Below, piece after piece: positions 16,784 to 62,539 of a DNA stretch of 64,000 nucleotides (position 1 is the first letter of the stretch; every line of letters begins with the position of its first letter). The DNA is taken from the NCBI GenBank assembly GCA_044892505.1, contig CM097883.1, positions 290,346,001 through 290,410,000 on the forward strand, read 5' to 3'. Below the pieces are notes generated by a model. It saw only the letters and a program-made list of their open reading frames with translations. It did not search any database and was not told where the DNA came from. This stretch comes from Schmidtea nova. Its lineage: Eukaryota. Both the position numbers and the translations under genes were made by a program.

Positions 16784-16928
16784 GTACACCAAAGCGCAAA
16801 AATTAAGGGCCAGACAGGCAAAATTTAAAGTTTCTATAATAACAAATTATTTTATATATAGAAAAAATATACATACCTACTGCAGATTAGGACAAAGTAA
16901 AATAGCACGGTCATTACGGGCCTACACT
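16784..16928 (-). repeat. Inverted copy of 533-680
   Basis: Direct sequence comparison. Confidence 0.9.
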
Positions 16929-32280: not shown

Positions 32281-32671
32281 AAATAAATTAATATAAAATT
32301 AAAATAAATTAATAAATTAATGTTGGGCCCACCAATTGGTCTAAAAAGGCAAAAATATTGTACTAATTTAAACAATAAATACAAATAATAACCACAAAAA
32401 ACATTCGAAAAACCTAAATTAAAAATTAAAATAAAATAATAAATAATAATTACTAAATTTCCAGCAAAGGAAGAAAATCAAATTGACACGAGAACGAGCA
32501 GTATGGGGGTCTGAAATAAGAAAATTACAAATAAAATCAAATAAAAGTACAATTAATTGGTTAATTACTTGAAAAATCAAGACCACCCAGCGAGAAATCT
32601 GAACCGGAAATTTAAAATGGTTTATATTAAAATAAAATAACAAAATTACTTTGATGGACGGCCTGATCCTG

Positions 32672-32706
32672 ATTGGTCAATCTGACCAACTGGATCAGTA
32701 TAAATA
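32672..32706 (+). promoter_or_regulatory. LTR core promoter: reverse CCAAT (ATTGG 32672-32676) + TATAAATA (32699-32706)
   Basis: Same pair with near-identical spacing in the divergent solo LTR (10276-10280, 10302-10309). Confidence 0.7.
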
Positions 32707-33382
32707 CCGATCCAAAAATCATACAGACAACACCTAACAACTTAGTTACCGAACTGAACTATCATAGTCAACTTTGATACGATAAATACTGTATAAATTT
32801 TTGGAGAACACTGCATCGTGGATTTAAACAGTAAATTTTTTTTTTGTATTGTATTTTGTATTAATTTTTATGATATGTTTCATGATTCCCATTTGTTTTA
32901 TTTTCATTTAATATAATTTATTACTATTGCTCTATTTTTTTTTCTTATGCCATTATTTTATGATATAATAAATATACTTCCTCAGTAGCTTACGCTGCGA
33001 GGGAGCAAGCCGTAAATGTGGGATTTCACCGTTCCACAAGATGGTGAGCAGAGTTTCTATTGGTATTCTTTATTTAATTTAATTTTTTCGGAAGTTTCAC
33101 GGTACGGTAAAGTTGTGCAGGGACAAGGACACGAGTAAAATTTGTAGACAGTGGTTAACATTTACATTCGATCAGACAGGCGAAAACAAACTATAATATC
33201 AATTCTCAGGTCGACTAGATCGATTTTTTCATATACACGCAAATTTTTGTAAATCAACATAGCTGATCGAAATAATGTCCGGACACACCGAGACGATTTC
33301 GACGTTTCAACTACAGTTTAATTTAGACATAAACAACGACATATTCGGATCGACACTACTGATTAAATAAGTAAGATCGTAA

Positions 33383-33454
33383 CCTGATCGCTGTACATAG
33401 CGCAGGTAATAATAGGTAAATTTTTAATATTCCGATCGCTGTACATAGCGACGG
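33383..33454 (+). other. Two stem-bulge-stem-loop hairpins with GTACAT loop (33383-33406, 33432-33454)
   Basis: CCTG-AT-CGCT-GTACAT-AGCG-CAGG and CCG-AT-CGCT-GTACAT-AGCG-A-CGG; three covarying copies in the solo LTR. Confidence 0.8.
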
Positions 33455-33610
33455 TGTTAATTGAATAGTTTGGAAAATATTATTTTTATTTCCTCCTTTT
33501 CACATTTTTTTTTGTGTTATTGATCAACGAGCAGAGCACTTTTTATCAGGTCTCGCCAAAATTTACGGATTTATCACAGTAAAATTCTATTAGCATTATT
33601 ATTTTCGCAG

Positions 33611-34111
33611 ATGAAATCAACGATACTGGATGAATTTCTAACAACTCAACGTCATGTGGCACGGGTCGAAAATCCTCTAATCCGGACGCAACGGAAGAAA
33701 TTGAAGTCGCTTCCACAGGAACTCCTCAGAACGCTAAATGCGTTGATGTATAAATGGAGAAGGGAACTAGGAAAGAAATGCCCATTTTCGATTTGGGCCG
33801 GTGGATTGGATACCATCGTATATCGAGGAGGCCCCGGATGGGAAATTCAGGACGAAAGAGACCGGGAGACGACAGCTCTGTTCATCATAGTGGTGTCAGA
33901 CAGCGAAGGAAATCCAACGACAGTGATCCATTGGGGATATGTCTCACCGCTCAAGTTGCTTAAATTCGGGTTGATTCCGAATCACCTACCGAAAACGTGC
34001 CACGGACGCCCCAAACTAAACTGTTCGATGGCTCACATCCGAAGAAATCCAGTCAATCACGGGTTGCATATTACTCCCGTTCACGGCCTCAAGCGAAGTG
34101 TTTTCCACTAA
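33611..34111 (+). CDS. LTR ORF-A, 166 aa, unknown function (5' LTR copy)
   Basis: ATG directly after TTTTCGCAG; GC-richer than flanks; same protein in the 3' LTR. Confidence 0.65.
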   Translation: MKSTILDEFLTTQRHVARVENPLIRTQRKKLKSLPQELLRTLNALMYKWRRELGKKCPFSIWAGGLDTIVYRGGPGWEIQDERDRETTALFIIVVSDSEGNPTTVIHWGYVSPLKLLKFGLIPNHLPKTCHGRPKLNCSMAHIRRNPVNHGLHITPVHGLKRSVFH

Positions 34112-34296
34112 ACATTATATTCACATTTTTATCAACTAAACGATTTCAATAAATTAAATGGTGTTGATCCGTGTTTTTTGTTTGTCCTTAGTTAAATTTA
34201 TTTCTATTTATTTAATCATATGATTTTTACACTCGACGGATAATATTAATCTTGGTAACATGTTTGATGCATTATAAATTGGGTTTGTTATTTAGT

Positions 34297-34887
34297 ATGA
34301 CGGAAACTAGCCAACAGCGAGAATTGGACAAGGCGTGGAGAATCCGCCGAGCATTGGAAAAGGAGCTAAACCAAGAAAAAGCCTTACGAGCCAAAGCAGA
34401 AGCTCAGATTCAGCATTTACGGACCAGCTGGTTCGCACCAGCTCGCATGAAGGAGCAGATGAGTCGGACGAAAAGGGCTCAAAAGACAGCTGACGATTAT
34501 CGCACCGAATGGGAAGCAACAAAAATTGAGTTGCGCCGATGTCTCCATTCGGTGACGACTTCATTTATCGAGTCCGAATTGAAAGCACAAATCCGACCCA
34601 TTACTTACCAGAAATGGGTAGGAGAACAGAAAGTGGCCTGCTCAGTCAGTACGGACACCGATGGACTCGAGGCAACCACAGTGCAGAGTCGGGTGGAAAC
34701 CCCCACTGTACCAAACCCCGTCGGAAGAACGAATAAGTGGAAACGAATCGGCTCCAAGCGCCGTCGCCAAAGAAAGCTGTTTTCTCAACAATTGCAGACA
34801 CAAGTAACCACTATGGCAGAAATGTCGGAGGCCGAGTGGTTATCAGAGATATTCCCTCCAGAAGGAATTTTCAAAGAATTTCTATAA
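34297..34887 (+). CDS. LTR ORF-B, 196 aa, coiled coil + Arg/Lys-rich motif (5' LTR copy)
   Basis: First ATG at 34297 after TTTAG-T; protein-level conservation with 11467-12048. Confidence 0.8.
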   Translation: MTETSQQRELDKAWRIRRALEKELNQEKALRAKAEAQIQHLRTSWFAPARMKEQMSRTKRAQKTADDYRTEWEATKIELRRCLHSVTTSFIESELKAQIRPITYQKWVGEQKVACSVSTDTDGLEATTVQSRVETPTVPNPVGRTNKWKRIGSKRRRQRKLFSQQLQTQVTTMAEMSEAEWLSEIFPPEGIFKEFL

Positions 34888-35382
34888 CAGATAGAATACG
34901 ATGTCCGATTTGGGAGTCAATTAAATCTTTGCTCGTTTTTGTTTTGTTGTTGTTATTTCCTTTGTATTTCTTTCGATTAAATAATTCATATAATTAAATT
35001 TCAATTACCCGTCACACAACGAAAGGAGTAGCGATAAAAAGAACTTGAATATTATCAAATTCGTAGTTTGGTTCTGCTTGTTTGTTTTGTTTTTTTTTTT
35101 TTTGATAAATACATAGCCTCACACACACAAAATAGAACAAGAATTGCGTAAGTCCTTCTACGGCCGCGTGAACCCGTAAGCATAAAGGGGGAGTAGTCCT
35201 AGCAATAGTGCTCACCTGCCCCTCATTGCTTAACCACCCTGCGCATCACCAACTTGGTTATCAAGGGAAATAATCAAGGGCGCTCGAGTGTAGCTTACGA
35301 CTATTTATGCATGATCATGGATGGGAGATCCCTAGCAATCATTAGAATTTTTACCAAACCGTCCATGAACCCAGCATAAATT

Positions 35383-36969: not shown

Positions 36970-37577
36970 GTGGATTACAGAGATATCCGGATAAATAGTA
37001 ACAGAGGGAATATAGACCCATAGTGTAATCGTCGACGAGATTTAGAATAGTGCGCACTAGTAGTTAAGAAATGCGAGTAAAGCTGATTATGCAACCTTAA
37101 ATAAAGCATGCAAGGAGAATAATAAAAATTCGAGCTGACCGGAGCAACCGACAGAATGAGTAAAACGATTGCTAGCAGGGAATAATGAATAAAGATGATA
37201 AAATAATGATAAACGAGTCAGAAAGACTCAGGGAATTAGAGCGCTCGAGCGACCAATAAATTGGGAAACTGTGGGAAAAGTAATGGATTTGATAAAACAT
37301 AGATAATTATTACGACATAAATAGATAATTGTGACCAGTCTATAGATAATTTAAATAGACTAAAAATAAAGGGGAATCTGGGAAGGGGAAATAATGAAAA
37401 CCCAGTAATAAGTAATCCCGAAAGAAAGGGAATAAAAGCGCGACGATAACAATAAGGTATCGTTGAGGACCTTTGTATTTTAGATATACAAATCAATCAA
37501 ATCAATCAAGCAACAAGAAGAATCAGAAAAACGATAATAGATAGGACAAGAAAATTGATAATATAAAAGTAATCCAG

Positions 37578-49000: not shown

Positions 49001-52000
49001 TTATTTCTGAATTATTGGAAAAAATCCCTGAAATACTCTTATTGAAAGATGTAGGAGGACAACCAGCCTTACATAATGCGATAGAGTGTAAAAACATTGA
49101 AAGAGCAAAAGAATTCCTAAAAATCGCAAAAGAAACAAACCAAAACTTGGACGTAGGGAATCGGGAACAAGAAACTCCATTAATGACAGCCGCAATCCAC
49201 CAAGCAGATAAAGAAATGATAGAGCTATTGATAAAAGCCAATTTCAGTTGGACAGAACGAGATAGAGAAGACAAAACAGTCTTAAGTCACGTAATATGGA
49301 GTTCACACAAACTAATGCTGAAACATATAATCGCAAACGCCACATGGGAAATAGACGAATTAATAAAAGGAGACATTATCAAAGAAGCAATCAAAATTGG
49401 GAAATGCGACACGATCCGTAAGTTGATCAAATGGAAACGACCAGAAGAGGATACATGGGTCTTAGACATAAACGAAGTATACAGCGAAGGACAAAACGCG
49501 CTGTTAAGATATCTTCTGAAATTTACTTGTGATCAGAAGACATTACTAACTTTATTAGACAGAGGAAACATAAACATCACAAAAAATGAAGAAGAATACA
49601 AATTCGATAAAGAAAAGGAGGCCTTATTCAACAAGATTAGGAAATGGTGTGCGAAACCACTTGATAAGTTAATAACCTACAAAGACATAAACAATTTTAA
49701 CGAGAAATACCAGATGATAGTAAGTGAGTATGAGGAATTAGTTAAAATCTTAAACCATCCCGAAAAATGCAAACAGGTTTTAGAGAAAAAAGAAAGAGAA
49801 AGTAACAAGAAACTCACACCACTCTTTAAAGCAGAAGCACCATACCAAGCTAGACTAGATGCGATACAAGAAAAAGCAAAAGAACTGTTACCGGAATTCG
49901 AAAATAGTAAACATGCACTGGAAATACTCGGCGCATTAGTTGAAAAAGTACACGCATACGCAAAAGGAACATACAATGGTAACGACATAACAACTATAAA
50001 AAAGGAGATGCCAGTAACATTTTTACTACCAAAGGACGGAATAATGCCCATACATAGAGCTTTACGAAATGGCAAAGATAGAAAAGTAATGGAAATTGCA
50101 CGAATAATGCTAAACTGCGGAAGCAACATGAATATGGTAGACGAGAAAGGAGATACACTCATGATATTTGCAGCAAGGGCCAAAACGAAAACAAAAGTGT
50201 TGGAAGAACTATACAAAGCAGGTGCAGGACTTACAGGAAAAACAGATAAAGATAATTCAATTCTGGATGTAGCATTACTAACACATAATTGGGAAATGGT
50301 CAACTTCATTAAAACAATCTCAAATCAGGAAGAAATAGATTACCTAACTGATACGGTCAGGAAACCCAGTGTACTAACAATGATGCATAATGTCGAACTA
50401 ACAGAAGCAATACTTACGTGGATAAATCCGAATACTAACGAACCAGCATTCAGGATTAATGAGTTTACAGAACATAACCAAAATTGGTGCATAAGAAGTG
50501 CCTTAATAACGTATAAATGGCCAGAGATATTGAAGATGTTTATGGAAAGAAAGGATCTAAGGATCACAACCAGCCCGAAGGAAGAAAAGTACACAGGCAA
50601 ATGGAAAGAATTGATGAAGACATACATCAACAATTGGATCAAGGCCAAAAAGGAAATCTTAGAATATAAATCCACTAACAAAGTAATACCAGAACAGGTA
50701 GAAACACAAGAGTTTGAGGCAAGTAATCTAACGACATTAGCGTATGCGAAACTAATAGAAGAAATCAATGTCGAGGACGACATTTTCGACGAGCCAGGGG
50801 GAGATGACAATACAGATAGTGACGACGGTAACAACTCAGAAAATTCAAACGATCACGAACCACCCGATAAAGAGGAAAACGAGAGAAAAGACAAGAAACG
50901 AGACAAGGAAGAAAAGAAAAGTAAAGACGAAAAACAAAGAGATGAAGAGGGAGAACAAGGAAAAAACGACCAAGGAGATAAAAATGACACCCAAAGAACA
51001 GGTTATAAATCAACCATAAAACCATTCTTCAAACCAGAATTACTATTATTAACAGTGATTTTAACGTTAATTAACCCAAGTCAAGGAATGACATGTGAAG
51101 AAAGGGCAATAATACAAATAAAAAACGCGAAAGGAATCGAACGAGTATGTTGGTCAAAAAAGGACAAAATCACGGAACAAAATAGTCCGATGGATTGCAG
51201 AATCTCAAAACACGAGCAAGAGATCATAGAGATCAATGACCTAGATCTAAATACCTGGTACAAAATATGCACCATTAGAAAACAAAAGCATCCAAGATCA
51301 CACAACACAATCGCATGTGCAAAATACCAAACACCTAAAGCAGCCATGACAATACAACAGTCACCCAAAGGAGATTACATCCTCGGAAAATGTGGAAGAA
51401 CAGAGACACAGGGAACAGAAAACAAAAAACCCCAGGCAACAGATAAGCAAACAACACCAACCCTACGAATTACAATAGAGAGGCCTGAAGCAAGAGTTGC
51501 CACAAACGAAACCGAAAGAGTGTCCTACCAAATGGAAGTATTATGTTTAGCACTCATACTAATAATGATAAAACGATTAGAGGAAGGAATAGAAATTGAA
51601 ACTATGACAATAACAGAAGTAGAAGATACACAGAATACTAACATAAAATGTTGGGCGAGGAATAACGAGGAAATCGGCGTAAACGAAATAAGGAAAAGTC
51701 GAAAACTAACAACGAATAAAGTAATTAAAATATCCGAAGTAAAAGCAGATAAGACGTACAAACTATGCCTACTAGAAAAAGAAACGAACAAGAAAGGTAC
51801 CACAAAATGTAAAACATTTCAACCTGGAGAGGTAATAAAGTTCAGAAGGAGAACGAGGAAGAGAAATAAACAAATCAAGCGGAAAGTAAACATAACATTA
51901 GAAATAAAAGAGATAGAACCAAATGTGAAAGGAGTATGCTGGAGGAAGTACGAAAAAGAAGTAAATAAAAGAACGACACCACAATGTCGAACAAACACAG

Positions 52001-54474
52001 GAACAACGACGATTCAAATAAAAGGTTTAGAAAGTAAACAAACCTACGAAATATGTTTGGTAAAGAAAAATGATCAGATAACGGTAAACGACCTGGAATG
52101 CGGAATATATACAACTTCATCCGGAACAAGAACCAAAACGTTAACACGGAAAAATAAAAGGAAACAACAAAACAAAGGAAAACCGAAGTACACCACTACC
52201 TTTAAAAACAATAAACAACCAACAAACCAAGAAGTTACGACGAAACCCGAGAGAAAAACATCAGCAACTCTAACATTATGGAAAATAGAGAATAAAACAT
52301 TGGAAATATGTTGGATAATAGTACAGAAACATATAAGAAGACAATCAAGAGAGTGCAGAAAAACAAATAAAGAAATCAAGATCGAAAAACTACAATTTAA
52401 TAGTGAGTACGAAGTATGCGCAATAGAAATAATGGACGCACTAAGAAACCAACAAGAAAGATGCGAAACCTACTATACACCAGTAAACGCGACATCAAAA
52501 GGAATAACAAGGAAACTCGAATTCAGGGAACTAAGCCAAACGAATGAACAAATGGACGCAGAAAAAATAATAATCGACCCTCAAGCAAAATGGACACCTG
52601 AAGAAGTTATCAAAGAAGTCAAAAGAAAGCAAGAGGAACGAGAACAATTAATGAGAAAACTAAAGGGACAATACGGAATAATGTTCAACCAAAGCGAACC
52701 TATACAAACAGACGAGAATAAAGAAATTAAAGAACTAATCGGCTTAGGAATATTAACAGCAACCATACCAGTAATAATCGCGTTATCAGCTATATGGATA
52801 CGCAAGATAAGCCCAAGAAAATCAACAACCCAATGGCTAAATATAGATAATACAAGCCATGGAGTAGAAATACTAGAAGAAAAAGCACGAGAAGAACCAA
52901 ATAAGAAAGAAGCGAAAAGCGGAAAACTAGGAATAAACAACAAAGACAAGGAAATAAAAGAGATTAAAGGCGAAGAGAAAAAATATGAAAGGCGAACCAG
53001 AAGCCTACCGCAGAGTTCAAAATGGTTGGGTCTAACAATAATATTGACATTAATCAATAGGGAAGAAGCAACAAACCTACAAGCAGGGATAAAAATAGTA
53101 AATGTCCAGGAGGTCGAGAAAATATGCTGGAATAGAGAGGATGAACCAATTGGGAAAGATAACCCACTAAAATGCATAATCAGAAAATCCGACCAGGATA
53201 TAGTACGAATAGAAGGGATGGATAGAGGAATCATGCATCGAATATGCATAATAGGAAAGGAAAAGAAGTCGGGGCTACCTAAGACAGTCGTATGTCAAAA
53301 ATACGAAACGCCTGGACTCGAATGGTATAGAGTAAAACCAACAAAGAAAGAAATCAAAAACACCATAGATCAACCAGCAACTCAGATAAGAAACACAACG
53401 GATAAACCAGGAGAAGGAGAGAAAAGCACCAATAAAACGAGAGAAAGAATATCACCCCAACAGGAGTGCGTATGCATAGCATTAATACTAGCAATGTCCA
53501 AACGTATCGATAAAGGAATAATAATAGAACAAATGGCCATAACAATAAGGAAAACAAGTAGCAACAAACTATGCTGGGGAACATACAACGAACCAAGGAA
53601 GGAATACCAAGTTCAGACAAGCGACGAATCACGAACAAACAAGGAAATCGAAATACAAGAAATACAAATGAATGAAGAAGGAAGTATATGTATCTGGGAG
53701 AAAGGAATCCAAGAGGGAATAGAGCATTGCAAGACATTCCAAAAAGGAGAGATACTGAAATTCGATGAAGAAGAATTAACAAAGACAGAAAGAACTCTGA
53801 CATTAACAGGACTCGATCAGACAGTTAAAGGAATATGTTGGACAAAGCATAACCCAGAAGGGGAAGAAGACAACCTAACCCACTGTAAAGAAATAAAGAA
53901 TAAAGAAAAAGTCGAATTAAAGAAAATGGAAGTAAATAGGACATACGCGATATGTACCTTCACCAGAAAAGGTTCAGAAAAACCAGAATGCGGATTATAT
54001 CAGATCTCAGAGAAACTACAACAACAGATCGAACCAGGAAACGTGGAAAACCGAACAAAAGAAAATAACGTCAAACAACTACTAAACCGCCATTGGTCTA
54101 TACAAGAAGTAATGAACAAAGTTAAGAGTCAAATACAGAAAGAGAAGAAGCCAGAGGCTCAAACCCAAAATGGGATAAAAGCGAACCAGAATAAAAGAGA
54201 AACAAACAGTGGAAAACCAATAATAGGATTAATCAGTATAGGAATATTAATAGCATATGGAATACTGACGACAAGCATAATAGTATATTGGAGATACAGA
54301 AGGAGAAACAAAGCAACAGCCATACAATGGCCAGATATTAAAATTATGAAACAAAAAATAGAAATACCAGAAGAGATACAGCAAGAATTCCAAAGAAGAA
54401 CGAAAGGTAAAGAATTCTGGAAACAAATAGAAGATGAAGAACGATACGAGGAAAAGACGATAATGATGGTATAG
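42961..54474 (+). CDS. pol: Env-Pol-accessory polyprotein: chuvirus-like glycoprotein, PR, RT, RNase H, integrase, ankyrin repeats, FN3-like membrane modules
   Basis: Signal peptide from ATG 42961; TM ~44701-44775; DTG 45409; YIDD 46624; TDASG 47068; HX6H..CX2C 47716; D,D,E (AMDVIG, TDQGTNF, ERFNGTL); GPY; no stop in 11.5 kb; +1 frame relative to gag with overlap to 43007. Confidence 0.95.
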   Translation: MNLSSIIMMMLIWMISTDSATAFEVFDCDQMKLGEKYSLRGTEQCKDATPVELQKIKKEQWYHVYQEAELIKTMVNECKVQKTRFAFYCGRGHYSAIVMPGTEREPIVLQGEDCEALFKHGEVTTRDKIKIKGKPGMMMQQTYYVAGRITGGEGYCQGETYPMFGTLATNLVVMDTYIVELKSYEAFFEPTTGEMKTLSMCKIDRTMCQTGMSTLVYKPKVNECQLQLLQGAKFDEIQGKTFQEEDDDDKARAKHLKEALENKRQLKPDHREKRIEMRATPTVLITTNQDVGMRFIKGKATLKCSTTVYETNYPGIYVSKQEVPNAKPKIDTMDIKLHLYVNNKMDFLFHRGQASLQKVYYDLINNDCILNREILKTKLAVAITNPDSAMPLLPLREGHFGRVVGEAMYVYICEKTHASLAATTQLKPGTCTNELEIDYKGKVRYVQPVTRIINPPGFEPNPFNCSNAYGPLYQKPDGKWVMFPGRSEVIAPREFELMQLSKDRQFSDVDVSNNGIYSPKDLEAARQNILFPARREALLSNIVTITGGTDYREGPNYELLLSPAHFKKATENMMKAMWGRFLIFGQMMAGILGVILIIQIVRVIITQMLACFDIYKREKKVNWKMVVGFLPFLAKTMVLHGHSKDIHRIKRLLKILAKMKGTDEEVGRKFKKIMNDEQARQQLKRERKGLWERVKGYKTQNDSSDDDDDDDDYKGGQVYKNQAPRYIEKNPADAWKCYAPPPTMYQEPLQGEKNSTMQMMPMTNVYPMIPEDYKMRRCRSVDPQGDAHTIAVMSSNTGPVLTTTIEINGREIEAMIDTGANISAIDIKWIPQEQRREIERTNVHVIACSKEVVEVAGRWWVKIRHLNTEIDTYVAVIPALSVPCIIGTDLMPALFKEIVIDLGTMRLKDRTGQICAIEAKVTSSKQMIIPARKEKICYVKIDPTIQGDMIFEPSKRFEKRKALPMARGLVNINNNGEIPINVVNFDEEDKIIYENERLGKLTPMMDIELPIAGAEKDKEPTWNIDSELLNEDQRKQLEKLLIEYKDIFAASDLDLGTCDVTLHTIPLTDETPIALRPYKLAEAQKAVAEAEVKKMLDAEVIEPSCSPWQFPVVMVKKKDGTQRFCIDYRRLNTVTKRDTYPLPDINEMLLTLQGAAYFTSLDLKSGYWQIKMKEEDKEKTAFTIGRDLYQFRKMPFGLTNAPASFQRCMNFVTHGIKQCMVYIDDLLIYSSTFEQHIQDIRDVFVRLRQWKLKLKPSKCDWAKEKVTFLGHIVSAKGKEPDPRNIDKVKECPVPKTITQIQEFLGLCGYYRKFIKDYAGIAKPIQELVKKDVSFICGDEQQTAFETLRDKLITAPILVHPDFKKPFLLETDASGYAAGAVLGQYDDEGKERVIGYYSRTFKKHEKNYSVTEREALAIILAIKHFKYLLWGHIICITTDHQPLVWLGQHKETSSRLMRWAMQLQEYSPDIKFKSGRANANADCMSRLTFPELTDPDVQRICVLIAEDLDFSELKKDQQEDRELGQIIEFLTSRNMEVFKDNKELKEHIGKYQHRYIINKGWLLIQDGEKRLMCLPENRRKEIMIQYHDGKLGGHMSEKKTINRMRQKYYWRTMEEDIKEWIKNCLTCATRKDSGKKWKNPLQPMPIPAEPMTTIAMDVIGPLPESLNGNIYILVITDYLTKFPEAFAMQDQKAKTVAKILVEEICCRYGTPKQILTDQGTNFMSELLNEVTNYFRIAKLRTSPYHPQTNGQTERFNGTLIRMLSNYVSRHQTDWDEYIKLCLMAYRMSIHAATKLSPFQLMYGRECNMPIDLEYQPPLSQYMEDDDYITKFKERMQEIWKTAELNIKFYQESYKDLHDQKKNVKANDLKPGDWVIIETPEIIPGTVKKLQRPGRGPYEIIYKKDNNVKVKLINRPLIRPIYVNTCRCKKVPKTITTTPENRIITRSQTARINMLRANATEDDKAEIRQKEIRNKEIILKAREIMGRWHVRDEAGISRDIRHIISRYAQGLPTEPIISELLEKIPEILLLKDVGGQPALHNAIECKNIERAKEFLKIAKETNQNLDVGNREQETPLMTAAIHQADKEMIELLIKANFSWTERDREDKTVLSHVIWSSHKLMLKHIIANATWEIDELIKGDIIKEAIKIGKCDTIRKLIKWKRPEEDTWVLDINEVYSEGQNALLRYLLKFTCDQKTLLTLLDRGNINITKNEEEYKFDKEKEALFNKIRKWCAKPLDKLITYKDINNFNEKYQMIVSEYEELVKILNHPEKCKQVLEKKERESNKKLTPLFKAEAPYQARLDAIQEKAKELLPEFENSKHALEILGALVEKVHAYAKGTYNGNDITTIKKEMPVTFLLPKDGIMPIHRALRNGKDRKVMEIARIMLNCGSNMNMVDEKGDTLMIFAARAKTKTKVLEELYKAGAGLTGKTDKDNSILDVALLTHNWEMVNFIKTISNQEEIDYLTDTVRKPSVLTMMHNVELTEAILTWINPNTNEPAFRINEFTEHNQNWCIRSALITYKWPEILKMFMERKDLRITTSPKEEKYTGKWKELMKTYINNWIKAKKEILEYKSTNKVIPEQVETQEFEASNLTTLAYAKLIEEINVEDDIFDEPGGDDNTDSDDGNNSENSNDHEPPDKEENERKDKKRDKEEKKSKDEKQRDEEGEQGKNDQGDKNDTQRTGYKSTIKPFFKPELLLLTVILTLINPSQGMTCEERAIIQIKNAKGIERVCWSKKDKITEQNSPMDCRISKHEQEIIEINDLDLNTWYKICTIRKQKHPRSHNTIACAKYQTPKAAMTIQQSPKGDYILGKCGRTETQGTENKKPQATDKQTTPTLRITIERPEARVATNETERVSYQMEVLCLALILIMIKRLEEGIEIETMTITEVEDTQNTNIKCWARNNEEIGVNEIRKSRKLTTNKVIKISEVKADKTYKLCLLEKETNKKGTTKCKTFQPGEVIKFRRRTRKRNKQIKRKVNITLEIKEIEPNVKGVCWRKYEKEVNKRTTPQCRTNTGTTTIQIKGLESKQTYEICLVKKNDQITVNDLECGIYTTSSGTRTKTLTRKNKRKQQNKGKPKYTTTFKNNKQPTNQEVTTKPERKTSATLTLWKIENKTLEICWIIVQKHIRRQSRECRKTNKEIKIEKLQFNSEYEVCAIEIMDALRNQQERCETYYTPVNATSKGITRKLEFRELSQTNEQMDAEKIIIDPQAKWTPEEVIKEVKRKQEEREQLMRKLKGQYGIMFNQSEPIQTDENKEIKELIGLGILTATIPVIIALSAIWIRKISPRKSTTQWLNIDNTSHGVEILEEKAREEPNKKEAKSGKLGINNKDKEIKEIKGEEKKYERRTRSLPQSSKWLGLTIILTLINREEATNLQAGIKIVNVQEVEKICWNREDEPIGKDNPLKCIIRKSDQDIVRIEGMDRGIMHRICIIGKEKKSGLPKTVVCQKYETPGLEWYRVKPTKKEIKNTIDQPATQIRNTTDKPGEGEKSTNKTRERISPQQECVCIALILAMSKRIDKGIIIEQMAITIRKTSSNKLCWGTYNEPRKEYQVQTSDESRTNKEIEIQEIQMNEEGSICIWEKGIQEGIEHCKTFQKGEILKFDEEELTKTERTLTLTGLDQTVKGICWTKHNPEGEEDNLTHCKEIKNKEKVELKKMEVNRTYAICTFTRKGSEKPECGLYQISEKLQQQIEPGNVENRTKENNVKQLLNRHWSIQEVMNKVKSQIQKEKKPEAQTQNGIKANQNKRETNSGKPIIGLISIGILIAYGILTTSIIVYWRYRRRNKATAIQWPDIKIMKQKIEIPEEIQQEFQRRTKGKEFWKQIEDEERYEEKTIMMV

Positions 54475-54599
54475 GGGCGGATTATGACTGTAAATAATAG
54501 TGTAAATAACAAAGCATTACCGTAATAGTATGGGTATCGATATTATAAAAATTGTAAAAAGATAGAAAAGCAAAGTAAATGATGTATATAATTTAGAAA

Positions 54600-54956
54600 A
54601 TGACCGAACAGGACGAAACAACTGAAATAACTATGGCTATGAGATGGAAAGCGCAATGCGATTTATTAGTACGAACAGTCAACTCATTACAGAACCAACT
54701 AGCGGAAAAACAAATGTTGCTATCAGAAAGTTACAACAACTGTTTCGAACAATTACACAGAATAGAGGAACAACAAAGAGCGATAACTGAACTCACCAGA
54801 GAAAATCAAACAATAAGCAACACCAACCAAAGACAAGCAATAGAAATAAACCATTTAACACGAGGAGAAAGAGAAGGATCCGAAGAAGGATGGATGAGTT
54901 GGGTAATAAATAGATTAAACAACGAAGCGGAACCAGATTCAACGAATGAGCCATAG
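54600..54956 (+). CDS. 118-aa coiled-coil accessory protein
   Basis: Heptad-rich Q/E/L sequence; TAG-AAA-ATG start context shared with neighbours. Confidence 0.7.
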   Translation: MTEQDETTEITMAMRWKAQCDLLVRTVNSLQNQLAEKQMLLSESYNNCFEQLHRIEEQQRAITELTRENQTISNTNQRQAIEINHLTRGEREGSEEGWMSWVINRLNNEAEPDSTNEP

Positions 54957-55048
54957 ATAAATAAAGCGGAAAACTGTAAATATGTAAAAATAAAAACAAG
55001 AAAAATCAAAAATAAATGACAAGTCGAATGTATATATTATTGTAGAAA

Positions 55049-56425
55049 ATGGACAGAGAAGAACGAACAATCGAAATCTTGAGATTAGAAAACAGAAAAT
55101 GGAGCAAGAGGCTCACATGCGGGAAGTGTAACAATTTATTACGAGAACCTAGACAAACGATATGTGGATGTAGAATATGTACAAAATGTATACAAGAATT
55201 AGATGCAACAGGAATAACAACATGCCCAGAATGTAAAGAAGGAAGAATAGTGTTGGACGAAACCAGAACGGATAAAGCAACCCAGAGAGAAATTATGAGC
55301 ACCATAACGGAGTGCGTAAATACACCTTGTACATGGCAAGGACAAATAAGCAATCTAGAAAATCACATGGAAAATTGCGAAGAGAAAAGAGCCGAATGCG
55401 AGAAGTGTCAACAGATAATAATACTAAAAAAGAAAGAACAACACAAGGACGAATGTAAAGAAGAAGAAATCGCATGCAAGTATTGTGAAACTCGAGAGAC
55501 AAGGAGAAGAATCGAAGAAGAACACTTAAATATAACAGAGGAGAAAATATGCGGACAATATGTAAGCAAATGTCCAAACAATTGCGAAATAACAGAAGAA
55601 ATAAAGTTACATGAACATTGGAAAATATGCACCGAAAGGCCAAGAGAATGTCCATATAACAAGCATGGATGCAAGGAAAAGCGGACGCGAAAAACAATGA
55701 AACAACACCTAGAAGAAGCAGCACTAACGCATGTGGAAATGACAAACGAAACGACAAAAGAAACGGAACAGACAATCCAGAAATTAGAAAAAGAAGTAGA
55801 ATCACATAAGATAATGATGAGTTTACTATTAGAAACAAGAGAGCAGTTTGAACTAACTCGCAAAAGAATGGAAGAGAAAATAATAGCCATAGCAGAATTA
55901 GGAAAAGGAATGAAAATACAATATAATCAATTAATACGAGAAATTGACGAAAGAAGGGACTTACCAATCGCACCTTACCTATGGAAAGTAACAGATTTCA
56001 GAGACAAACTAGCAGAAGCCAGAAATATGACGAAAACAGCAGTAATAAGCCCACCATTTTATTTATGGAAAAATGGGGTTAAAATAAGATTGAAAGTATA
56101 CCCAAATGGAGACGGAAGAGGACAAGGAACACACGTGTCAATATTTTTCTCGCTATGTAAAGGAGAATACGATGACCTAATAGAATGGCCCTTGAAAGTA
56201 GGAGTCATTATAAGAATCAGGAGTGTGGGAAAACCAGTAGAAAAGTTCTTTGAAACAGACAAACATACGAGTACGAGCGAAAAACCAACGACAGAATGCG
56301 GACTAGCAGCAGGAGAACCAATGTTTATAAGGAAAGAAAACCTATGGGAACGACTATATGCAGACACGCTATACATAGAGATGGAGAGGCATGAGAAAAC
56401 GGATAAAAAAGGATGGTTGGCGTAA
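55049..56425 (+). CDS. TRAF: TRAF-family protein (RING, TRAF zinc fingers, coiled coil, MATH), intronless, 458 aa
   Basis: CGKCNNLL.EP.QT.CGCR.C..C RING; five Zn-finger-like repeats; YLWKVTDF, ISPPFY, KVYPNGDGRGQGTHVSIFF.LCKGEYDDL.EWP MATH motifs. Confidence 0.95.
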   Translation: MDREERTIEILRLENRKWSKRLTCGKCNNLLREPRQTICGCRICTKCIQELDATGITTCPECKEGRIVLDETRTDKATQREIMSTITECVNTPCTWQGQISNLENHMENCEEKRAECEKCQQIIILKKKEQHKDECKEEEIACKYCETRETRRRIEEEHLNITEEKICGQYVSKCPNNCEITEEIKLHEHWKICTERPRECPYNKHGCKEKRTRKTMKQHLEEAALTHVEMTNETTKETEQTIQKLEKEVESHKIMMSLLLETREQFELTRKRMEEKIIAIAELGKGMKIQYNQLIREIDERRDLPIAPYLWKVTDFRDKLAEARNMTKTAVISPPFYLWKNGVKIRLKVYPNGDGRGQGTHVSIFFSLCKGEYDDLIEWPLKVGVIIRIRSVGKPVEKFFETDKHTSTSEKPTTECGLAAGEPMFIRKENLWERLYADTLYIEMERHEKTDKKGWLA

Positions 56426-56538
56426 TGAAGGAAATAACCATGTAAATAAAATGTATAGAAACAATATGAAATAACAAATAATCAAAAACAATAAAAATAA
56501 AAACTGATTAAATATTCTTTTTATCTGTAATTATAGAA

Positions 56539-57600
56539 ATGGGAAATATAGAAGTAACCTTACAAGAAGTAACCGTACATCAAGACGAAATGATCAGAAA
56601 TCACATGGAGCGGATTGGGATATGGATTCACGCCTATTATCGTAAACAGGAAGAATTGGAAAGACAAACCGAAGTACTAAGAGAAGCTGAAGAAAGGAAT
56701 CAAAGAAGTAGAGAAAAAATAGAGGAAGTCTATAAATTACTGAGGCAACAAAACGAATACTACAAAGGAATGATGAAAGAGCGACGAGAGGATAGAGATA
56801 GACAACAGATAAAAACAGACCACAAGATCCAGTCAATCACCGAACAAGCAAGATATTGGAAGAAAGAGGCAAAAGACTCTTACAAGGAAGCAAGGGAGAT
56901 AATTGAACGAACAGCGTATAGCGATGATTGGAAACTGTTTAAAGAGATCGATGAATTAAAAGAGGAATTAGGGCAAAAGATCAGTCAAGAAGCGTCAAAT
57001 AAAGTATGGAGTAAGAAAAGACAACAATTTATCAGAGAACAAGCCAAGAAAATAAAAGAATTAACTTATCAAGTACAAAGAATGGGAGAAGATTTAGCCA
57101 ATCAAGAACAATTAAAAGGTATGCTGACCGAAATGTGGAATCACAAGGAAGAAAACATGAAAAGAGACATAAATGGATATCAAGGAGTGATCACCCAGAA
57201 GAAAATAGAATTAAAAAGGACTAAAGAAAGAATGGAAGAAACAAAACAGAGTTATGAAGAAAACATAACCAACTTGACAAAAGAAAACGAAGAACTGAGA
57301 AAGAAGCTAATAGAAAAACCAGTACCCACAAAGGAAACAAGTATCACAGCAGCAGTGACCGAAATGATAGAGAAAGAAGAGAGAGAGAAAAAATTAGCAG
57401 AACTAGAAAAACAAATAGAAACCCTAACAGAGCAGGCGAACTATCTGGAATACTTATTAGATGAAGAGATCCAGATATCCCACACGTACCGAGAGGAAGT
57501 GGAAATGTGGAGGAGTACGGTAATATGGATGCCACTCCCCATAAACCAGGTGGAACCTCAAGACGAAGGTTTTCACGAACCTAACGAAACCCTCGTGTAA
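56539..57600 (+). CDS. 353-aa long coiled-coil accessory protein
   Basis: E/K/Q/R-rich heptads throughout; TAG-AA-ATG start context. Confidence 0.75.
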   Translation: MGNIEVTLQEVTVHQDEMIRNHMERIGIWIHAYYRKQEELERQTEVLREAEERNQRSREKIEEVYKLLRQQNEYYKGMMKERREDRDRQQIKTDHKIQSITEQARYWKKEAKDSYKEAREIIERTAYSDDWKLFKEIDELKEELGQKISQEASNKVWSKKRQQFIREQAKKIKELTYQVQRMGEDLANQEQLKGMLTEMWNHKEENMKRDINGYQGVITQKKIELKRTKERMEETKQSYEENITNLTKENEELRKKLIEKPVPTKETSITAAVTEMIEKEEREKKLAELEKQIETLTEQANYLEYLLDEEIQISHTYREEVEMWRSTVIWMPLPINQVEPQDEGFHEPNETLV

Positions 57601-57679
57601 ATGAGCGGAAACCAATTGTAAATAGATGATGTAAAATAAAAAGCGTCAAGCTGTATTGACTCCTATGTAAAGATAGAAA

Positions 57680-58240
57680 ATGAGAAAGCTCGCAATACCA
57701 ATACTCCTAGGGTTAATAACCATCACCCTACAGAGAGAAGATCTACAACTTACCGAAACCCAATTACGAGTTCTACCCGACAAAACCTACCAAAAAGTAG
57801 ACAGCCTAATCGAAGAAGTAATTAAAGAAATCAACGAATTCCGACAGAAATATCCCCACAATCAAGATCATCAAATCCAACAAATCTTAGATAACCAACA
57901 ACTGAAGCTAAAAGAAACCCAAAAAACCCTGAAAGAAGGTAGAGAGCCCATAAAAAGCCTAGCCCAAGCTGAAATAGAATATCAAGAGAAATATATCATA
58001 GCAATCATCATAATCCTCTCAATCAGCGTAACTATCATCGCAATCACAATCCTGATTGCCTCCTACCGGATAAAAATCCTCAAACAGAAACAAACCATCG
58101 TCAATCAAACATCAAGGCGAGACAAACGAACCCAAAGACGTATGAGAAAACATCTAGATCAAATTCAGACCCACTACGAATTAGCTACAATCAATGAGAG
58201 AACTCAAACCCAACCCAATGCGAGCCGGAGGATCGAATAG
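57680..58240 (+). CDS. 186-aa predicted type I membrane protein
   Basis: N-terminal hydrophobic leader (LAIPILLGLITITL), helical ectodomain, TM (IIAIIIILSISVTIIAITILIA), basic tail. Confidence 0.7.
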   Translation: MRKLAIPILLGLITITLQREDLQLTETQLRVLPDKTYQKVDSLIEEVIKEINEFRQKYPHNQDHQIQQILDNQQLKLKETQKTLKEGREPIKSLAQAEIEYQEKYIIAIIIILSISVTIIAITILIASYRIKILKQKQTIVNQTSRRDKRTQRRMRKHLDQIQTHYELATINERTQTQPNASRRIE

Positions 58241-58427
58241 ACTTTGTGAACATCTCTGATGAACCTTTAACTATCCTGTGACAATAATCTGATAATATTC
58301 AACTATTCTATAACAAATCTCATGATGTGTATAAATTCTATCACCCTAAGTGATTTTCTTGTGTTTATGTATATATCTGTAAAACTTTTTATGTATGATG
58401 TTATAAGTAGTTATGTATAATTAATTG

Positions 58428-58457
58428 CGGGACGCAATTTTAGGGGTCCCCGAGTGA
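58428..58457 (+). promoter_or_regulatory. PPT position, atypical (CGGGACGCAATTTTAGGGGTCCCCGAGTGA)
   Basis: Immediately precedes the 3' LTR; CGGGACG..TTTT..GGGG resembles Gypsy pre-LTR tracts but is not purely purine. Confidence 0.55.
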
Positions 58458-59747
58458 TGTTGGGCCCACCAATTGGTCTAAAAAGGCAAAAATATTGTAC
58501 TAATTTAAACAATAAATACAAATAATAACCACAAAAAACATTCGAAAAACCTAAATTAAAAATTAAAATAAAATAATAAATAATAATTACTAAATTTCCA
58601 GCAAAGGAAGAAAATCAAATTGACACGAGAACGAGCAGTATGGGGGTCTGAAATAAGAAAATTACAAATAAAATCAAATAAAAGTACAATTAATTGGTTA
58701 ATTACTTGAAAAATCGAGACCACCCAGCGAGAAATCTGAACCGGAAATTTAAAATGGTTTATATTAAAATAAAATAACAAAATTACTTTGATGGACGGCC
58801 TGATCCTGATTGGTCAATCTGACCAACTGGATCAGTATAAATACCGATCCAAAAATCATACAGACAACACCTAACAACTTAGTTACCGAACTGAACTATC
58901 ATAGTCAACTTTGATACGATAAATACTGTATAAATTTTTGGAGAACACTGCATCGTGGATTTAAACAGTAAATTTTTTTTTTGTATTGTATTTTGTATTA
59001 ATTTTTATGATATGTTTCATGATTCCCATTTGTTTTATTTTCATTTAATATAATTTATTACTATTGCTCTATTTTTTTTTCTTATGCCATTATTTTATGA
59101 TATAATAAATATACTTCCTCAGTAGCTTACGCTGCGAGGGAGCAAGCCGTAAATGTGGGATTTCACCGTTCCACAAGATGGTGAGCAGAGTTTCTATTGG
59201 TATTCTTTATTTAATTTAATTTTTTCGGAAGTTTCACGGTACGGTAAAGTTGTGCAGGGACAAGGACACGAGTAAAATTTGTAGACAGTGGTTAACATTT
59301 ACATTCGATCAGACAGGCGAAAACAAACTATAATATCAATTCTCAGGTCGACTAGATCGATTTTTTCATATACACGCAAATTTTTGTAAATCAACATAGC
59401 TGATCGAAATAATGTCCGGACACACCGAGACGATTTCGACGTTTCAACTACAGTTTAATTTAGACATAAACAACGACATATTCGGATCGACACTACTGAT
59501 TAAATAAGTAAGATCGTAACCTGATCGCTGTACATAGCGCAGGTAATAATAGGTAAATTTTTAATATTCCGATCGCTGTACATAGCGACGGTGTTAATTG
59601 AATAGTTTGGAAAATATTTTTTTTATTTCCTCCTTTTCACATTTTTTTTTGTGTTATTGATCAACGAGCAGAGCACTTTTTATCAGGTCTCGCCAAAATT
59701 TACGGATTTATCACAGTAAAATTCTATTAGCATTATTATTTTCGCAG

Positions 59748-60248
59748 ATGAAATCAACGATACTGGATGAATTTCTAACAACTCAACGTCATGTGGCACG
59801 GGTCGAAAATCCTCTAATCCGGACGCAACGGAAGAAATTGAAGTCGCTTCCACAGGAACTCCTCAGAACGCTAAATGCGTTGATGTATAAATGGAGAAGG
59901 GAACTAGGAAAGAAATGCCCATTTTCGATTTGGGCCGGTGGATTGGATACCATCGTATATCGAGGAGGCCCCGGATGGGAAATTCAGGACGAAAGAGACC
60001 GGGAGACGACAGCTTTGTTCATCATAGTGGTGTCAGACAGCGAAGGAAATCCAACGACAGTGATCCATTGGGGATATGTCTCACCGCTCAAGTTGCTTAA
60101 ATTCGGGTTGATTCCGAATCACCTACCGAAAACGTGCCACGGACGCCCCAAACTAAACTGTTCGATGGCTCACATCCGACGAAATCCAGTCAATCACGGG
60201 TTGCATATTACTCCCGTTCACGGCCTCAAGCGAAGTGTTTTCCACTAA
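59748..60248 (+). CDS. LTR ORF-A (3' LTR copy)
   Basis: Identical protein to 33611-34111. Confidence 0.65.
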   Translation: MKSTILDEFLTTQRHVARVENPLIRTQRKKLKSLPQELLRTLNALMYKWRRELGKKCPFSIWAGGLDTIVYRGGPGWEIQDERDRETTALFIIVVSDSEGNPTTVIHWGYVSPLKLLKFGLIPNHLPKTCHGRPKLNCSMAHIRRNPVNHGLHITPVHGLKRSVFH

Positions 60249-60433
60249 ACATTATATTCACATTTTTATCAACTAAACGATTTCAATAAATTAAATGGTG
60301 TTGATCCGTGTTTTTTGTTTGTCCTTAGTTAAATTTATTTCTATTTATTTAATCATATGATTTTTACACTCGACGGATAATATTAATCTTGGTAACATGT
60401 TTGATGCATTATAAATTGGGTTTGTTATTTAGT

Positions 60434-61024
60434 ATGACGGAAACTAGCCAACAGCGAGAATTGGACAAGGCGTGGAGAATCCGCCGAGCATTGGAAAAGG
60501 AGCTAAACCAAGAAAAAGCCTTACGAGCCAAAGCAGAAGCTCAGATTCAGCATTTACGGACCAGCTGGTTCGCACCAGCTCGCATGAAGGAGCAGATGAG
60601 TCGGACGGAAAGGGCTCAAAAGACAGCTGACGATTATCGCACCGAATGGGAAGCAACAAAAATTGAGTTGCGCCGATGTCTCCATTCGGTGACGACTTCA
60701 TTTATCGAGTCCGAATTGAAAGCACAAATCCGACCCATTACTTACCAGAAATGGGTAGGAGAACAGAAAGTGGCCTGCTCAGTCAGTACGGACACCGATG
60801 GACTCGAGGCAACCACAGTGCAGAGTCGGGTGGAAACCCCCACTGTACCAAACCCCGTCGGAAGAACGAATAAGTGGAAACGAATCGGCTCCAAGCGCCG
60901 TCGCCAAAGAAAGCTGTTTTCTCAACAATTGCAGACACAAGTAACCACTATGGCAGAAATGTCGGAGGCCGAGTGGTTATCAGAGATATTCCCTCCAGAA
61001 GGAATTTTCAAAGAATTTCTATAA
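60434..61024 (+). CDS. LTR ORF-B (3' LTR copy)
   Basis: One K>E difference from the 5' copy. Confidence 0.8.
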   Translation: MTETSQQRELDKAWRIRRALEKELNQEKALRAKAEAQIQHLRTSWFAPARMKEQMSRTERAQKTADDYRTEWEATKIELRRCLHSVTTSFIESELKAQIRPITYQKWVGEQKVACSVSTDTDGLEATTVQSRVETPTVPNPVGRTNKWKRIGSKRRRQRKLFSQQLQTQVTTMAEMSEAEWLSEIFPPEGIFKEFL

Positions 61025-61500
61025 CAGATAGAATACGATGTCCGATTTGGGAGTCAATTAAATCTTTGCTCGTTTTTGTTTTGTTGTTGTTATTTCCTTT
61101 GTATTTCTTTCGATTAAATAATTCATATAATTAAATTTCAATTACCCGTCACACAACGAAAGGAGTAGCGATAAAAAGAACTTGAATATTATCAAATTCG
61201 TAGTTTGGTTCTGCTTGTTTGTTTTTTTTTTTTTTTTTTTGATAAATACATAGCCTCACACACACAAAATAGAACAAGAATTGCGTAAGTCCTTCTACGG
61301 CCGCGTGAACCCGTAAGCATAAAGGGGGAGTAGTCCTAGCAATAGTGCTCACCTGCCCCTCATTGCTTAACCACCCTGCGCATCACCAACTTGGTTATCA
61401 AGGGAAATAATCAAGGGCGCTCGAGTGTAGCTTACGACTATTTATGCATGATCATGGATGGGAGATCCCTAGCAATCATTAGAATTTTTACCAAACCGTC

Positions 61501-61939: not shown

Positions 61940-62539
61940 TTGAATTCATTATTTGAAATCATGAAAGATTTTGAAAATCAAATTGATCACATTCCACAGG
62001 GATATTTTTTTGAGGACATTGGAAAGGTTTTAGAAATATGGTTTAATTCGGACAACAATGAATGCAAATTGCGATACAGTTCTGAAAGCTCGAACATTCA
62101 AATTCTTGACAAAGTCAATAACCAAATCTTTTCAAAAATGTCCCATGATCATGTGGATTCTTATGTGTTGAGTGAAAGCATTTTGTTCGTATCGCAAAGG
62201 AGGATAATCCCAGAAACTTGTGGCACATTTCTATTAAATGCTTCGAAATCGATATTGGAATTCGGTAAATGTTTAGGGTTTCAAGAATACCAGATATTTC
62301 ATTCGCGTCGTCGATTTGAATATCCTGCTTGTCACATATTGGTTGCTCAAAATCTATTTGATGAAATTGATCATTTCGATACTGTTGCTAATGTCAAAGG
62401 AAATGCCTACTCGTTTGGATCGACTCATGTGACACTGATAATGACATGCTGTGTGGTTCTCAAATGTAAAACGAATAACATTATGAACATCTCATTAGAA
62501 ATAAATTTACAAATAATACACCGTTTAGAAAACAAGTAA
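61940..62539 (+). pseudogene. AMD1: S-adenosylmethionine decarboxylase N-terminal fragment
   Basis: FFEDIGKVLEIWF, DSYVLSESILFVSQRRI..TCGT..L, FHSRRRF match AdoMetDC; only about half length, the Glu11 equivalent is Gly, ATG start not certain. Confidence 0.8.

Follow-up and report, generated by a model that had tools for sequence, protein, structure and literature searches.

Candidate nested splice acceptors and Pumilio-type sites between the four accessory genes of a Burro-like planarian retrotransposon

The four accessory genes studied here are the 3' cassette of a Burro-like LTR retrotransposon, and the spacers ahead of them repeat one layout of UGUA motifs after the stop codon and an AG just before the next start. 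One genomic copy carries a deletion whose end coincides exactly with the first of these signals, so the genes are likely released from a single long RNA through splicing. The UGUA pair that follows each stop is probably, judging from its letters and place, a site for a PUF-type protein, and in that case an RNA-binding protein, Pumilio for instance, would probably control the dose of the genes. We give this combination of nested cis-acceptors with PUF-type sites after the stops an even chance of being correct. The window (the whole 64-kb stretch of DNA analysed) contains this 29 kb Gypsy LTR element of a planarian genome from 32321 to about 61510, with the following parts ahead of and behind the cassette.

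32321..35376, + strand: 5' LTR, about 3.05 kb, with a CCAAT-type box, a TATA (GTATAAATA at 32698) and two internal ORFs
32831..32836, + strand: candidate splice donor of the leader (GT, then a T-rich tract)
38010-43007, + strand: gag
42961-54474, + strand: frame for env-like fusion protein-PR-RT-RH-IN-ankyrin
51002..51007, + strand: cryptic donor in pol (CAG/GT), joined to acceptor 1 in the copy G000:C1:268373149(-)
58241..58457, + strand: 3' non-coding stretch with five TGTA, including TGTATATA at 58368, and a purine tract preceding the LTR
58458..61500, + strand: 3' LTR, its terminal part masked by N in the window

The two LTRs differ by 6 mismatches over 3044 aligned nt and enclose PR, RT, RH and IN in that order within a total near 30 kb, as in Burro-like elements. 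The gag and env-pol frames are separate in the window and in L218, and form a single frame in L177, L059 and L067. PF24664, an env-like fusion glycoprotein, occupies aa 276-616, ahead of the protease at aa 803; this position after gag fits Burro-like elements, and the MATH/TRAF and ankyrin cargo is as expected of a giant Gypsy element of that kind. A BIR domain was without a match among the 17 proteins scanned, and a RING ORF is present; on this ground the element is classed as Burro-like and not as Burro1, a class that rests on gene order, size and cargo, with Burro compared by description. With Burro (GYPSM1), as portrayed in the accessible text of PMC6431247, the element shares a length of ~29 kb, LTRs of ~3 kb, a planarian host, many copies, an env-like fusion protein between gag and protease, ankyrin repeats and a cargo of MATH/TRAF and coiled-coil proteins. 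It differs in the place of TRAF, which Burro1 carries inside ORF1 and the D. tigrina element in an accessory ORF located upstream; in the window TRAF has an ORF of its own behind pol, as one of four genes in a row. The same text, as far as accessible, is silent on accessory-ORF expression and on spacer motifs. A search with the env family recovered other Gypsy families, whose long ORF has neither a cassette homologue nor a motif row downstream. An Rfam search gave 0 matches, and 0 tRNA genes were found.

The cassette itself alternates spacers and genes, all on the + strand.

54475..54599, + strand: spacer 1, with TGTAAATA at 54489 and 54501, TGTATATA at 54583 and acceptor TAG at 54594-54596
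54600..54956, + strand: ORF A, 118 aa, short coiled-coil-like
54957..55048, + strand: spacer 2, with TGTAAATA at 54975, TGTA at 54983, TGTATATA at 55029 and acceptor TAG at 55043-55045
55049..56425, + strand: TRAF-type gene, 458 aa, intronless, with a TRAF zinc finger and a MATH domain
56426..56538, + strand: spacer 3, with TGTAAATA at 56441 and TGTA at 56452; in its 3' part a branch-like CTGAT at 56504, a T-rich tract and acceptor TAG at 56534-56536
56539..57600, + strand: ORF CC, 353 aa, coiled-coil protein
57601..57679, + strand: spacer 4, with TGTAAATA at 57617, TGTA at 57630 and a conserved TGTATTGAC at 57652; in its acceptor region an AG at 57671 and TAG at 57674
57680..58240, + strand: ORF TM, 186 aa, with a hydrophobic N-terminus and one likely membrane segment, as predicted from sequence

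The same four-gene order is kept in two sister families, B (L057, L061) and C (L064, L068), whose proteins are 49-77% identical to those of the cassette family (58-74% for ORF A, which has no family match above cut-off). The TRAF-type gene has at least 150 close copies; a protein search with it returned only generic TRAFs at about 25% identity and no close relative. Protein searches found no relatives of ORF CC beyond the host genome, and the matches from Atlas searches with the cassette proteins were uninformative.

With lengths of 125, 92, 113 and 79 nt, the spacers are as short as the earlier note had stated (79-125 bp), and all the TGTAAATA and TGTATATA sites that it placed in them are present. 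On the + strand of the window, five of the six TGTAAATA fall within the 409 nt of spacers. As a control for chance, the spacers were dinucleotide-shuffled 20,000 times, and no shuffle reached the observed count of TGTAAATA (5; shuffle mean 0.21), TGTAHATA (7; 0.33) or TGTA (15; 4.6), so the claim of a motif density far above chance holds. Nor did any of the 20,000 place TAG-AA(A) at the end of three of the four spacers. Because the motifs were picked post hoc, conservation in the sister families is a stronger test than the shuffles. All 7 TGTAHATA of the window lie on the sense strand, and there are 0 on the + strand of the element's ORFs in 19.9 kb. The second TGTA of each post-stop pair stands 8-13 nt from the first, TGTA recurs 5-17 nt upstream of the acceptor AG, and a GCGGA-like word lies downstream of three stops. 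Spacer folds are weak (-4 to -11 kcal/mol, without shuffle control) and thus give no sign of IRES-like structure.

Across the three families, TGTAHATA is found 15-22 nt downstream of the stop in 12/12 spacers, and an AG 1-4 nt upstream of the ATG, in a frame that is not fixed, likewise in 12/12. In the window the TAGs at 54594, 55043, 56534 and 57674 are followed by AAA, AAA, AA and AAA and then ATG. The proposal that every start reads TAG-AA(A)-ATG is therefore right for all four window starts, but the T, the spacing and the frame vary across families; the further example given at 11460 in fact reads TAG-AAAA-ATG, with four A. Since the AG is kept in 12/12 spacers without a fixed frame, it is the AG, not the word TAG-AAA-ATG, that is under selection. 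Invariant columns make up 53-74% of the spacers compared with 52/123 (42%) of four-fold sites, at which T was kept in 4/13 and G in 1/16. Each accessory ATG is preceded by pyrimidine or branch context and an AG in all 12 spacers: T content increases ahead of the AG, on a strand that is rich in A, and spacers 1, 3 and 4 conserve branch-like TRAY words. Within the family, TAG stands upstream of TRAF in 100/100 of the copies listed, the sole changes (3) being at position -4, and upstream of gene A in 36/37 sampled copies, one of the 37 having lost the AG of acceptor 1. Acceptor 4 is atypical, with AAG rather than TAG in 16/20 family copies and in family B too; its TAG belongs to the window's subfamily.

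The copy G000:C1:268373149(-), whose LTRs are 99.93% identical over the 1526 nt they share, is without exactly window positions 51002-54596, a GT...AG interval ending at acceptor 1. As background, 40 other copies (362 kb aligned) have 11 deletion junctions, of which 0 are GT...AG and none ends at acceptor 1. The exact GT...AG deletion is good evidence for acceptor 1 working in cis, which we regard as likely. The junction carries a 2-nt AG microhomology, so that a template switch is possible, and its donor is the cryptic pol site, not the LTR leader; this site reads GC in family C and hence is not conserved. The ends of three other deletions (L201, L025/L240, L221) lie no more than about 150 nt from acceptor 1. 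L201 was considered as a second acceptor-1 junction and rejected, being a homology-type deletion within ORF A. Seven of the eight matches of the acceptor-1 junction search, and L063 from the LTR-donor search, were unrelated DNA. The search for spliced copies came up empty at the TRAF acceptor (0 vs 112 normal starts) and, in the 9 of 28 matches examined, at the CC acceptor. Donor-like sites lie 122-181 nt downstream of TATA in the sister LTRs as well, three LTR families in all; a search with one of the four candidate leader donors recovered no spliced genomic copy. Runs X1-X4 consist of contigs with even, DNA-like cover and showed no GT...AG among the joints listed (15/42; 5/5 in a second set), and the acceptor-1 deletion junction was not seen in X2/X3; these runs therefore do not bear on expression.

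The same AGs could serve trans-splicing. In a spliced-leader (SL) operon, each spacer would be cut past the upstream gene and the planarian SL joined to the AG, with the UGUA pairs coupling or tuning 3' end formation; we treat this as a possible but doubtful alternative. The host does have an SL system: the 3'-terminal 20 nt of the planarian SL have 944 exact matches in the genome, against 0 for the control. None of the 100 matches listed was recognised as the SL RNA gene. An ATG directly after the AG and spacers of ~100 nt are compatible with SL operons, and in host SL-captured messages the ATG is likewise close to the splice site (<=5 nt in 7/23 distinct messages, median about 12). Our spacers of 74-125 nt agree with the ~100-bp peak reported for Macrostomum operons in the accessible part of PMC8629364, and flatworm acceptors are often common to cis and trans splicing, according to the available text of PMC12582326. 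However, a pattern for the SL directly ahead of cassette, RING or LTR-ORF starts in the three families gave 32 matches, of which 0 came from the element (30 loci were checked by tblastn and 2 by letters; the pattern left out the family-C TRAF start and LTR ORFs not starting ATG-V-V). As only a small number of genes is represented in the captures, this is a weak negative. There is evidence of cis use for acceptor 1, and in the accessible passages of PMC12582326 cis splicing is lowest at operon-resolving sites. A conserved AATAAA is also missing: it is absent from spacer 1 in every family and in no spacer at a common position across the three, although poly(A) signal variants are common in planarians (PMC5068929, as far as accessible). 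In-frame use of the terminal AUG of the SL was rejected, the AG-to-ATG distance of 1-4 nt being variable even within one family. In sum, the cassette resembles the flatworm SL operons of PMC8629364 and PMC12582326, as partially available, in its co-oriented genes ~100 nt apart, an acceptor at each ATG and an SL host, and departs from them in being part of an LTR retroelement with upstream donors and in its unconserved poly(A) signals. The earlier suggestion of splice or trans-splice acceptors thus stands for the acceptors, with the AG kept in three families while spacing and frame drift and the deletion ending at acceptor 1; cis use is somewhat favoured over trans.

For the post-stop motifs, the first site matches the PUF consensus: it reads UGUAHAUA in the RNA and is placed as in a 3' UTR. 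It is the octamer of the Pumilio response element described in the accessible text of PMC5855632, on the sense strand and 3' of the stop codon; it differs from that element in its fixed distance of 15-22 nt from each stop, in its looser UGUA partner and in the repeats beside 3' splice sites. Pumilio elements, named as candidates in the earlier note, accordingly agree in sequence, strand and position for the first site, while the second keeps TGTA alone as its invariant part and usually falls short of a full PUF site. PUF binding also leaves unexplained the recurrence of TGTA just upstream of the acceptors. Such loose pairs, 8-13 nt apart and invariant in the second site only at TGTA, could instead be CFIm-type 3'-end signals that, with splicing as above, provide a poly(A) site per gene in the manner of an adenovirus late unit. 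AATAAA at or after the stops of the RING and LTR ORFs makes internal poly(A) in the element plausible, but spacer AATAAA is not conserved, the full octamer is conserved in the first site, and planarian 3P-seq, in the portion of PMC5068929 available, detected neither UGUA ahead of poly(A) signals nor CFIm59/68; we judge this reading unlikely.

Two further readings use the GTAAAT within the octamer. As a donor-like word at a fixed distance from each stop, it could open GTAAAT...AG mini-introns (59-107 nt implied) whose removal from a polycistronic RNA would leave about 20 nt or less between stop and start; alternatively ribosomes might reinitiate on such an RNA. The GCGGA-like word past three stops speaks in favour of this reading. 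T precedes the GT in 12/12 spacers, unlike AG/GT donors, the TGTA 5-17 nt upstream of the AG cannot serve as a donor, and no intron-less copy was found for spacers 2 and 3 (the spacer-1 pattern is blind to such a junction), which leaves this reading decidedly improbable. The other, proposed in the earlier note, makes each spacer a mini-promoter with forkhead sites (GTAAATA), and TGTAAATA is similar to FOXC-type sites. GTAAAYA is indeed dense in the spacers (5 in 413 nt vs 8 in 19.9 kb of ORFs). Against it, there are 0 antisense-strand sites, family B breaks the core in spacer 2 (TGTATATA/T, compatible with PUF but not with forkhead), the CCAAT/TATA pair conserved in the LTRs of three families is missing from the spacers, and neither the conserved AG nor the GT...AG copy is accounted for without splicing. 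We consider mini-promoters very improbable and do not uphold that proposal. The suggested echo of the LTR hairpins is doubtful too: the TGTACATA sites of the LTR fall within stems and probably represent another signal.

Under nested cis-splicing with PUF-type sites, acceptors 2-4 likely work like acceptor 1, the LTR leader being spliced onto each gene. As in complex retroviruses, a single LTR-driven RNA would undergo alternative splicing to weak nested acceptors, and each gene would thereby become the first ORF of its own message. More tentatively, a site 15-22 nt past the stop would lie just beyond a terminating ribosome, where a PUF protein could lower translation or determine how stable those messages are in which the downstream genes form a long 3' tail. 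Nested splice acceptors are known from complex retroviruses and a spliced env mRNA from Gypsy errantiviruses. On this reading the cassette resembles both in having one LTR promoter, weak acceptors just ahead of accessory ATGs and genomic copies of spliced RNA; it differs in that its genes do not overlap, each junction has one motif layout with a post-stop UGUA pair, and the leader-to-acceptor junctions are putative.

Burro-type elements bear cell-death and ubiquitin genes and are, to our knowledge, the largest LTR retrotransposons of animals. One of them is reported as supporting planarian stem cells (as cited in the accessible part of PMC13465017), in which Pumilio is expressed (PMC5855632, available text). 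In the literature searched we found no description of how cargo genes outside the polyprotein are expressed in such elements, nor a retroelement operon in print, which the cassette would be if the SL is used. It is conceivable, at the level of a tentative proposal, that the LTR retroelement has built its own operon from a repeated junction module of twin UGUA, branch point and AG, at which the host SL and a stem-cell PUF protein would cut four host-manipulating genes, TRAF included, out of the long RNA of the element and dose them. The spacers supply exact, testable junction coordinates and suggest a possible connection to the neoblast regulator Pumilio.

The four-gene cassette (gene A, TRAF, a coiled-coil ORF, CC, and a membrane-protein ORF, TM) lies in an LTR element whose domain set fits the description of Burro elements in PMC6431247. 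The element and associated features of the window are:

32321 to about 61510: LTR element, with the cassette at its 3′ end
33380-33458, 59517-59595 and 11210-11352: small hairpins with a CTGTACATAG core, near donor-like sites of the LTRs
33611-34887 and 59748-61024: two protein-coding ORFs per LTR, each directly after a YAG
16140-14800, minus strand: spliced leader (SL) unit, consisting of ~140 fixed nt and the planarian SL, then a variable host mRNA 5′ piece; repeated

The LTR pair carries 6 mismatches over 3044 aligned nt. Pfam domains include a gag zinc knuckle, env-like fusion protein, protease, RT, RNase H, integrase and ankyrin repeats, and further ORFs encode a RING protein and a TRAF with a zinc finger and MATH domain. 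Unlike Burro as described in PMC6431247, the window element has TRAF as a separate, downstream ORF, and we found no BIR domain in it. Close copies of the cassette number at least 150 in the genome. Two copies from sister family B (L059 and L061) share one in-frame RT-RNase H-integrase loss and retain the cassette, as would a non-autonomous subfamily. A tandem array at G000:C2:344122014-344156048 (L186-L198) comprises at least 21 units of ~1.7 kb; every unit contains spacer 3 and the CC gene plus a portion of TM, all derived from a related subfamily. In three families (window 37482-38009; L060, L062, L067), gag has an open frame of 153-155 codons 5′ of the first ATG, lying just 3′ of a conserved acceptor-like TTTAG|ATA; a non-AUG or spliced gag start is possible. 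Just past the 3′ LTR lies an intronless S-adenosylmethionine decarboxylase-like ORF (61961-62539).

Rechecking the sequence bore out all spacer and motif coordinates of the earlier note with small corrections, and the spacer motifs exceeded all 20,000 shuffles. TGTAHATA occurs 7 times in 409 nt of spacer versus 0 in 19.9 kb of the element's ORFs (plus strand). Full elements of sister families B (L057, L061; reached via the solo LTR at 10.2-12.6 kb) and C (L064, L068) keep the gene order of the window's family (A) for all four genes, with proteins 49-77% identical. With a single copy counted from each family, the first TGTAHATA sits 15-22 nt 3′ of the stop in 12/12 spacers, a second TGTA follows another 8-13 nt further, and an AG lies 1-4 nt 5′ of the ATG in 12/12, these counts being four sites seen three times in families of common ancestry rather than twelve independent sites. 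Spacer 2 of the second family-B copy, L057, carries TGTATATT. Acceptor 4, the AG closing the spacer before TM, is AAG in 16/20 family-A copies and in family B, and CAG in family C. Invariant positions make up 53-74% of the spacers versus 52/123 four-fold sites, where T and G are seldom retained across families. Given this conservation, the loss of T and G, and the 12/12 AGs, selection falls on an AG with a T-rich, branch-like context, and not on TAG-AAA-ATG, which had been proposed as the shared start rule. The cassette module is a real, conserved junction module within a known kind of element.

The post-stop motif matches the PUF consensus, UGUAHAUA, and the single substitution at the first site hits the degenerate fifth base. 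Its location just beyond the terminating ribosome would suit a repressor or RNA-stability element, by analogy with the RSV stability element and with microRNA sites. Planarian stem cells depend on a Pumilio (PMC5855632), which is essential there. Family B and the restriction of the motif to the sense strand tell against the suggested alternative of mini-promoters with forkhead sites, and an invariant T before the GT tells against a splice donor. A CFIm-type reading fits the looser second UGUA (a paper on twin UGUA has been published, PMC10476966), but UGUA is not enriched at planarian poly(A) sites (PMC5068929). TGTA also occurs beside acceptors, which PUF binding does not explain.

Retroelements leave DNA copies of their own RNA, and we therefore looked through the genome for gene starts preceded by foreign sequence. 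Gene A gave 8 such matches, 1 of which, G000:C1:268373149(-), is an element copy that matches the window at 95% identity on either side of a gap of exactly 51002-54596. The missing segment opens with a GT preceded by CAG, and its last bases are the spacer-1 TAG; the 3′ LTR is 99.93% identical to the present part of the 5′ LTR. As a background, 40 copies taken at even steps along a copy list (362 kb) yielded 10 scripted deletions and one found by eye, and none of these 11 has a GT...AG junction (several scripted fits are rough; 8 junctions were checked by eye). Four more junctions likewise lack it: two in L201, one in L204 and one from a family-B deletion that was read by comparison with the window. 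A hand estimate from background rates, assuming ~200 copies, nine possible registers over three acceptors and GT after AG in 2%, puts the chance of such a junction at about 1 in 1000, which could rise to 1 in 100 because three other deletions end close to acceptor 1. Against splicing stand a 2-nt AG microhomology at the junction, a donor that family C does not retain, and the junction's absence from the contigs of X2 and X3. Genome searches returned no similar copies for the TRAF acceptor, the CC acceptor or one LTR donor. This copy is one piece of near-direct splicing evidence, and its exact GT...AG-type deletion, weighed against the background, indicates that acceptor 1 very likely works in cis; by their likeness to it, the other acceptors may do so too.

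For the cassette acceptors together, we give cis splicing an even chance. For cis we count the deletion copy, the donor-like sites that lie 122-181 nt 3′ of the TATA box in three LTRs, and the reported finding that cis splicing is lowest at flatworm operon-resolving sites (PMC12582326). Rather improbable is an SL-resolved operon, with the host SL trans-spliced to the cassette genes: the host possesses an SL, host SL captures show a short SL-to-ATG distance, and spacer lengths fall close to the 100-bp peak seen for Macrostomum operons (PMC8629364), but poly(A) signals in the spacers are not conserved and element genes are absent among 32 candidate SL captures, the latter being weak evidence. 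Mixed cis and SL use is possible. The LTR hairpins number two in family A and three in family B, and their stems differ in sequence while retaining pairing. They may serve in RNA dimerisation, a role suggested by the palindromic core, or in packaging. TGTACATA in the LTRs sits within these hairpins and is not clearly the same signal as the post-stop motif, which the earlier note saw as echoing them. Downstream of the first LTR ORF, an AATAAA and GT-rich tract (about 34146-34190) resembles a poly(A) site internal to the LTR.

With the SL sequence printed in the supplement of PMC10899757 as query, its 3′ end gave 944 exact genomic matches, which identifies the host as a Schmidtea-like planarian. 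Most of these matches are host messages that were captured, and together they amount to a small fossil collection of trans-spliced 5′ ends. In the window's SL unit the host piece is a CAF1/PARN-type fragment (15980-15624, minus strand), and a proteasome alpha fragment, here at 15379-14966 (minus strand), often follows in such units. An inverted repeat of 130 nt, 97% complementary (551-680 and 16785-16914), encloses this unit, the solo LTR and hAT-like transposase pieces. In a sample of 30 SL matches, the upstream part is common to 27/30 and the proteasome piece present in 11/30; among unit loci sampled genome-wide (L109-L168), some are identical pairs 4-5 kb apart. The units resemble a mobile family whose members pick up SL-capped messages, and they preserve a fossil record of which genes were trans-spliced; they may be more novel than the cassette junction module.
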